Shown here piece by piece: positions 21,001 to 22,142 of a stretch of 22,142 nt of DNA. A program made the position numbers. The DNA lies in UHGV virus genome UHGV-0075672. One strand, 5' to 3'. Positions within the stretch are counted from its first letter, which is position 1; each line of letters starts with the position of its first letter. Source of the stretch: a virus.

Positions 21001-22142
21001 GCCGTCGCCGACTGATTAAAGCAGGACTTTACATTGATGAGTTTGAAAAGGCGCTATGACTAACAAATACACTCTCATTTACGCAGATCCACCTTGGACA
21101 TTCCGCGACAAAGCAACCGATGGTCAACGCGGTGCAAGTTTTAAATATCCGGTCATGAGCCTTCTCGATATCTGCCGCCTCCCGGTATGGGAACTGGCAG
21201 CAGATAACTGCCTGTTGGCTATGTGGTGGGTGCCTACACAACCACTTGAAGCATTGAAGGTTGTAGAAGCATGGGGCTTTCGCCTGGTGACGATGAAAGG
21301 ATTAACCTGGAACAAATGCGGGAAAAGACAGACCGACAAGCTGGTCATGGGTATGGGTAGCACCACTCGCGCTAACAGCGAAGACTGCCTTTTTGCAGTG
21401 AAAGGAAATCTGCCTGAACGCATTAACGCCGGAATAATTCAGTCATTTACTGCACCACGCCTTGATCACTCCCGCAAGCCGGATATGGCGCGAGAAAAAC
21501 TTGTGCAACTTCTTGGCGATGTTCCCCGGATAGAACTGTTCGCCCGCCACACCTCGCATGGATTTGATGTATGGGGTAACCAATGCGGAACACCATCCAT
21601 TGAGATGGTTCCGGGTATTGTTAAATTTCTGGAGAAAACCAATGAGCGAAAAAACGACGTTGACAAAGGCATCACCAGTTGAATTAAGGCAGTGTCTGGA
21701 AATCGCAAATCAACTTGCCAGAAGTGGAATACGCTTTGTTCCAATCCCGATCACAGCAGATGCAGAACTTCATCTGTTTGGTGAAATTCTTTCCCGAAAG
21801 CTGGATGAACTGGAAAAGCTGGTAGAAGAAGCTGACACCTCACCAATCGCATAACACCCCCACCGACATTAAAATATCAGGAGAAAAAAATGAACGCCGT
21901 ACTCACAGAATTGAACAAATTAGGAAAAGCAACAGCCGACAGCATTTCTAAAGGTCTCAATATTGATTTGAATGACGTCATTGATACGCTGTGGAAGTTG
22001 AAAAACCAGGGGATCGTAAAGGTAAAAAACGGCATCTGGCAGGCAGTAGAGGGAGTTGGAAGCAAAACAGATATTGATTCAGTTCAACCAGTTCAGCCAG
22101 TTCAGCCAGTTCAGCCAGTTCAGCCAGTTCAGCCAGTTCAGC

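Follow-up and report, generated by a model that had tools for sequence, protein, structure and literature searches.

A probably slippage-prone 9-nucleotide coding repeat in the linker of a phage phi24B Gp05 orthologue from an Escherichia coli Stx-type prophage

The closest described counterpart of the locus reported here is Gp05 of phage phi24B (vb_24B_3c, ADN68392), which has been modelled as a winged helix followed by a PVQ repeat and a coiled coil (Donaldson 2021, Antibiotics 10:1282, PMC8614690). In that AlphaFold model the repeat was possibly polyproline-II-like; one allele was modelled, and variation in copy number was not reported (PMC8614690). We analysed a stretch of 22,142 nucleotides, the virus genome UHGV-0075672 (the window), which ends on its right side inside an array of 9-nt units coding for Val-Gln-Pro (VQP). 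The gene that carries the array is the orthologue of gp05, the same gene, and it likewise lies downstream of a DUF1382 gene (vb_24B_4c in phi24B) in the exo-xis region. It is likely that the array is a slippage-prone coding minisatellite in the linker of the Gp05 orthologue, that its length variation is mostly tolerated drift, and that the window end is a place where the assembly broke. Both the gene and the PVQ repeat had been annotated and published before (PMC8614690), and the additions made here are modest: an allele range of 1 to 15 units, a one-unit change between clonal strains, two types of unit, a link to the YdaW family, and an explanation of the assembly break. In the literature searched, we found no paper besides PMC8614690 that treats the gene or the repeat, and neither the range of 1–15 units nor the clonal one-unit change was found there. 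A search for VQPVQP gave nothing relevant, and one for the 9-mer as a discussed repeat returned only chance matches.

Tandem Repeats Finder reported a period-9 tandem array at 22080-22142, with 7.0 copies, 98% matches and a score of 119, and a periodic run of such length cannot be a product of chance in 22 kb. Read in the frame of the ATG at 21890, the coding variable-number tandem repeat (VNTR) occupies 22082-22142 on the plus strand and translates as (VQP)6-VQ before it is cut by the window end. It is composed of a variant first unit, GTTCAACCA (22082-22090), five perfect units of GTTCAGCCA (22091-22135), and a partial last unit, GTTCAGC (22136-22142), which is 7/9 of a seventh. The initial annotation had described at least 6.5 copies coding for VQP with the frame open at the window end; the six full units and the partial one bear this out, but the copies are not all alike, as the first is a synonymous CAA variant. 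The gene carries a matching array in 187 phage records and 313 complete E. coli genomes as well.

An exact-pattern scan of viral contigs gave three loci only, and the survey of copy number rests instead on BLAST alignment spans. For the phages, 60 records were sampled in even steps from the 187, the number of units (n) was inferred from the spans, and the calibration was checked on phage ArgO145; 58 of the 60 rows were interpretable. The commonest allele among these has 5 units (25 of 58), and the other rows have 1 (5 records), 2 (4), 3 (7), 4 (10), 6 (6) or 7 units (1). Alleles of 1, 2 and 3 units were read directly in protein clusters. Read directly in DNA, the array has 4 units in phage ArgO145, 5 in phage GER2, 6 in phi24B, G6/7 and G8, 7 in G1/2, 9 in JNEC-KY177 and NE 1092-2, and 15 in 2015C-3121, and alleles of 8 and 10 units were inferred from alignment spans in complete genomes. 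The spans vary by multiples of 9, except in two complete-genome rows (H84 and H215). The comparison of repeat number among related prophages, which had been proposed as a check, thus gave a range of 1–15, and the locus is not one of a few invariant copies followed by an immediate stop. That a 9-nt unit would let the copy number change without loss of the frame was also foreseen, and the alleles read at the sequence level are all in frame.

Two types of DNA unit occur, GTTCAGCCA as in the window and GTGCAGCCA as in phi24B, with GTT and GTG, respectively. Within one array the units are identical at synonymous sites, and such homogeneity would be the pattern expected from a recent expansion by slippage. 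The clearest case of change is found in G1/2, G6/7 and G8, which share an IS150 insertion and do not differ over 10,382 nt on the left side of the array and 10,300 nt on its right side. The unit counts are 7, 6 and 6, respectively, and since the flanks of 20.7 kb are identical, this shows that the one-unit change between the clonal strains is recent. Copy number differing between clonally related genomes is the behaviour of a hypermutable VNTR. A different kind of change was seen in the O157:H7 strain NE 1092-2 (L008 3170-3215), where ACG stands in place of the ATG of the gene and the nine units are of the GTGCAGCCA type; in RefSeq the open reading frame (ORF) of this strain starts at a GTG three codons downstream, and its product is called hypothetical.

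The gene in the window has a ribosome-binding site, AGGAG, at 21879-21883, 6 nt 5' of the ATG, so the strong site and the start at 21890 stand as they were initially annotated. The window holds the 5' part of this gp05 / DUF1627-family gene, 84 codons on the plus strand (21890-22142). Translation from the ATG gives 64 residues in front of the array, and not the 65 stated initially. Residues 1-53 (21890-22048) form a winged helix-turn-helix head, as judged from Pfam, AlphaFold2, Foldseek and the ratio of nonsynonymous to synonymous differences per site (pN/pS). Residues 54-64 (22049-22081; EGVGSKTDIDS) are a non-repetitive connector, delimited in our alignments A1 and A2 and modelled with a predicted local distance difference test score (pLDDT) below 50, and this is the segment that diverges most between the two allele types. 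The phi24B allele has six units of GTGCAGCCA and the connector AREVDKKPNIAP, where the window has GTTCAGCCA units. Over codons 1-53, 4.5 nonsynonymous differences separate the window type from the phi24B type, with pS = 0.34, pN = 0.036 and pN/pS about 0.11. Since pS in the head is so much higher than pN, the substitution pattern indicates that this is a real coding gene under purifying selection. Scans for promoters and terminators around the gene gave nothing above the shuffled expectation.

Three full-length genes, from phage GER2 and from E. coli JNEC-KY177 and 2015C-3121, code for exactly the same residues 1-64 as the window. In the relatives with this N-terminus the repeat is followed by VQ[H/N] NIIGDLLRKSRKEARRAGRKQKRWEGACKALQELNKYRDLINELSE and then by a stop, and the tail is 47 residues long, basic and helical; the 47-residue tail of phi24B Gp05 is identical to that of the closest full-length relatives of the window. 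Every full-length relative with the N-terminus of the window has the basic C-terminal helix, in the region that lies beyond the window end. The Pfam match of the head to TrmB was below threshold, 23.3 bits as compared to a cut-off of 25.6, and there was a match to TFIIE-alpha too. The AlphaFold2 model of a relative with a 3-unit allele (P0003) has helices at residues 2-11, 16-23 and 27-40 and strands at 43-46 and 49-52, with a pLDDT of 76-87 for the winged helix. Residues 55-74 have a pLDDT below 50, the region of the VQP tract being modelled at low confidence only, and a helix follows at 79-122. When the head was compared with the Protein Data Bank by Foldseek, only winged helices were returned (TFE-alpha, AspA, Zalpha, OhrR/MarR and FtsK-gamma, E about 0.01); a solved structure was not found for any member of the family.

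The predicted layout of the protein is thus an N-terminal winged-helix head, a (VQP)n tract and a basic C-terminal helix, and the repeat is a linker, as the initial annotation had assumed, which in full-length relatives joins the head to the 47-residue helix. The C-terminal helix probably dimerises, and the head, by its fold, may bind DNA. The tract between them would be an extended, possibly polyproline-II-like spacer. An extended chain measures about 3.1 Å per residue, and each unit would therefore add roughly 9 Å if the tract is extended.

The gene belongs to a family that is named but poorly characterised in the databases: RefSeq calls the product "DUF1627 domain-containing protein", and the full-length JNEC-KY177 allele matches PHROG 1888 (E = 1e-70), which is without assigned function. 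The full-length relatives match PF07789 (DUF1627) in the tail only, at profile positions 94/110-153 of 155, with scores of 28.2-29.9 bits as compared to the gathering cut-off of 28.1. The fragment in the window has no PF07789 match, because the matching part lies beyond the window end. A second, internal winged helix, which makes up roughly the first 90 positions of PF07789, is absent from all gp05-type proteins, and the repeat stands in its place. HMMER, run exhaustively against 1.84 billion representative proteins, gave only 13 relatives. The distant ones among them are canonical DUF1627 proteins of 137-260 residues and about 30% identity; P0018, the one taken as query, shares 99% identity with the Rac prophage protein YdaW. 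In alignment A2 the winged helix-turn-helix and the C-terminal helix are conserved, and the middle is very variable in length and composition, often with a second winged helix-turn-helix. None of five relatives from Salmonella, E. albertii, E. ruysiae and a soil metagenome-assembled genome (four of them complete proteins) has a tandem repeat in the linker.

Both ends of the window lie in tandem arrays, which was pointed out initially and taken as notable in itself. The observation is correct, but it is best explained by breaks in a short-read assembly and not as biology. On the right side the window closes with a perfectly periodic run of exactly 55 nt (22088-22142, plus strand), and the relatives continue after GTTCAGC with either C, which gives another unit, or A, which gives the exit unit GTTCAGCAC. 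It is most likely that the window ends inside the array because the short-read assembly broke there. The length of the run would fit a break in a de Bruijn graph at k = 55, where the first fully periodic 55-mer recurs, and we take it as a signature of such a break. The recurrence of a 55-mer needs a perfect run of at least 64 nt, so on this explanation the source genome would have at least 6 perfect units and the CAA unit, that is, at least 7 units. Of the complete genomes, SCU-104 is closest to the window as a whole (81% coverage, 99.0% identity), and its array has 7 units. The break could also stem from a second copy of the gene that carries another allele.

The left window end (1-62) consists of 8.9 perfect copies of the heptamer CTGGTCG. 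The finished relatives JNEC-KY177, G1/2 and G6/7 have 79, 93 and 83 copies (the array lies in L013 1010-1562, L014 914-1562 and L020 982-1562). No short read spans 79-93 copies of the heptamer, and we therefore read the position of both window ends in repeats as a property of the assembly. In these relatives Q and hok lie upstream of the heptamer array, and an HsdM-type methyltransferase gene follows it. The array also varies between near-identical strains, since G1/2 and G6/7 are 10 copies apart despite their identical 20.7-kb flanks at the VQP locus. RefSeq names the ORF over it alternately "YXWGXW repeat-containing protein" and "hypothetical protein". The array contains the octamer GCTGGTCG, which is one base off Chi, GCTGGTGG. 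No paper on the heptamer sequence was found in the literature search.

We infer slippage as the mechanism behind the VQP alleles. Replication slippage between identical 9-nt units would add or remove three residues per step with the frame kept, and alleles of 1 to 15 units would come to coexist as a result. A short-read assembly would fail to resolve an array longer than its k-mer, so that the window would end there. Most of the copy-number variation is probably tolerated drift of the linker, because the middle region varies from about 10 to 130 residues in the family. Several points weigh against this explanation. The neutrality of the length variation is an assumption, and the 3' end of the array lies outside the window together with the C-terminal domain, which bears on the intactness of the gene in this genome. 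The expression and function of Gp05 were stated as unknown (Donaldson 2021, PMC8614690). The left window end has 62 periodic bases, not 55, which makes the reading of k = 55 circumstantial. Finally, the 313 complete-genome records hold 334 places with the locus, 21 extra, and some genomes thus have two copies of the gene.

It is conceivable that the length of the linker is instead selected, that it sets the reach of the heads in the dimer, and that it tunes the balance between lysogeny and induction, or excision, and so the output of Shiga toxin (Stx). The gene is situated just upstream of xis, within the exo-xis region, which, taken as a whole, influences both the lysogenisation and the induction of phi24B (PMC3824215, PMC10789677). 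According to the 2021 model, heads on a long linker would be able to bind at sites with tens of bp between them (PMC8614690). The alleles are not evenly spread but cluster at n = 3-6, with 5 the commonest among the interpretable phage rows, although this clustering may only reflect the sampling of a few successful phage lineages. Distant members of the family have unrelated linkers of 10 to 130 residues, which suggests that the length is not critical, and a 9-nt unit gives no on/off switching. Adaptive tuning of this kind is in our view unlikely. We would give even less credit to the bolder idea that the copy number is a heritable, fast-mutating "ruler" for a dimeric protein encoded beside xis that would bridge DNA or counter defence. 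If it were true, Stx prophages that differ only in the array would differ in stability of lysogeny, induction or excision, and hence in toxin output, and a medically important phage would carry a contingency locus that is graded and in frame.

The protein may also be a factor for anti-defence or host takeover and not a DNA-binding regulator, the repeat then being a spacer that holds out the C-terminal helix towards a target in the host. No part of the family is better conserved than the C-terminal block, and the canonical member, YdaW of the Rac prophage, came up in an over-expression screen as one of the prophage "blockers" of RcaT, the toxin of retron-Sen2 (bioRxiv 10.1101/2020.06.22.160242). 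In the available part of the preprint it is a screen hit only, given without a mechanism; YdaW-type proteins are moreover only about 30% identical, and PHROG 1888 and 630 have no functional category, so we hold this role to be very improbable. The 9-mers could be thought to act as DNA, as protein-binding iterons or another cis element with an incidental coding frame, as they form a perfect tandem array of identical units about 0.3-0.4 kb upstream of xis. The array is always in frame inside a conserved ORF, however, and about 1.6 kb from the attachment site. A role at the DNA level was rejected on the two unit types, GTTCAGCCA and GTGCAGCCA, which differ in DNA and both encode VQP, and we find it hardly plausible. 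That the window ends inside the array, and that its other end is also in a repeat, might even raise the suspicion that the array is a mere product of assembly or sequencing. This is refuted by the hundreds of finished genomes and phage records in which the array has both flanks intact, and the chance that the array is not real is negligible. Tolerated variation by slippage in the linker is the explanation that we retain.

The last 1.1 kb of the window matches the 187 phage records at 90-100% identity, and almost every one of these is a Stx1- or Stx2-converting phage from E. coli or Shigella. Among 5,426 complete E. coli genomes, about 310 carry the locus, which is chromosomal in every case. 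By Pfam, the minus strand of the window codes for Q, NinG, primase and helicase, and the plus strand for a cI-type repressor and a PstI-like restriction-modification pair. Further plus-strand genes are those for RecT, an exonuclease, antirepressor-like proteins (AntA, BRO-N and ORF6N domains), an MT-A70 methyltransferase and a DUF1382 protein, and then comes the VQP ORF. The window represents the early-left arm of a lambdoid prophage of the Stx type from E. coli, and from the gene content of the strands, the plus strand is the leftward early (pL) direction of transcription. The conserved order in the relatives is MT-A70, DUF1382, VQP-repeat gene, xis, int and tRNA-Arg, with xis starting about 80 nt 3' of the VQP-repeat gene, and the window therefore stops about 0.3-0.4 kb before xis. 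Both xis and int lie beyond the window end and are known from the relatives only. A difference in phi24B is that two extra ORFs are found between vb_24B_3c and xis.

Immediately upstream of the VQP ORF is the small DUF1382 (PF07131) gene on the plus strand (21642-21854, coordinates from the RefSeq annotation of the relatives; Pfam E = 3.6e-28). It overlaps the 3' end of the gene for the MT-A70 family DNA methyltransferase (21056-21682, plus strand), which was identified by Pfam (PF05063, E = 1.3e-22) and by the annotation of the relatives. In G1/2, G6/7 and G8 it is this methyltransferase gene that IS150 interrupts (L010/L011/L012 7911-9983). The phi24B record gives PF07131 also to vb_24B_8c, the homologue of lambda orf63, and the DUF1382 gene seems, from the shared Pfam family, to be a second orf63-like gene of the exo-xis region. 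Farther to the left, the restriction-modification pair lies directly 3' of the cI-type repressor gene (5930-6643); on the Pfam matches it consists of a protein with an Eco57I-type methylase domain (6738-8207) and a BsuBI/PstI-family endonuclease (8204-9157), both on the plus strand. Two small minus-strand ORFs are found within the leftward operon at 18555-19191, where the annotation of the relatives has a HigB/RelE-type toxin and a HigA antitoxin.

With the gene annotated in hundreds of genomes and the PVQ repeat described in 2021, the locus matters little in itself. Its practical consequence is that short-read assemblies of prophages from Shiga toxin-producing E. coli will break or mis-size the VQP locus from about 7 units. 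Since the array changes between clonal strains, it could be used to tell Stx-type prophages apart on a fine scale; no typing scheme by multiple-locus VNTR analysis that uses the locus was found in the literature searched. If the protein influences the decision between lysis and lysogeny, the natural alleles would be a ready-made series of linker lengths.

Among the known systems, the YdaW group (PF07789, PHROG 630) is one of the closest to the protein, and shares with it the N-terminal winged helix-turn-helix, a middle that varies, and a conserved C-terminal helix in which positions with Cys, Leu and Asn are invariant. The YdaW-type proteins differ in their size of 137-260 residues and their non-repetitive linkers, and many have a second winged helix-turn-helix. 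In the Rac prophage ydaW presumably comes after the replication genes. The archaeal proteins Sso10a and AspA resemble Gp05 in layout, a winged helix and then a dimerising helix, and the head has one of its best structural matches in AspA (5k5q), which was also the comparison used in PMC8614690. No sequence homology to them was detected beyond the generic winged helix-turn-helix (E about 0.05), and proteins of this type have short, fixed linkers without a tandem repeat. The head also gave weak sequence hits to Zalpha domains and has their compact winged-helix fold, with a target-normalised TM-score of 0.78 and a root-mean-square deviation of 1.0 to 4kmf, and a TM-score of 0.82 to 1j75. The signature contacts of Zalpha are an Asn and a Tyr on helix 3 and Pro-Pro-x-Trp in the wing. 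Membership of that family was rejected, as in the HMMER alignment to 1oyi the Asn is replaced by Ile or Val and the Tyr by Trp, and the Pro-Pro is absent, although the wing Trp is kept. At the DNA level, the phase-variable contingency loci are on/off switches, which the VQP array is not, its unit of 9 nt being a multiple of 3. The array is instead similar to the bacterial in-frame coding VNTRs, which likewise have perfect short units, one-unit differences between clonal strains, and variation in the length of a protein spacer.
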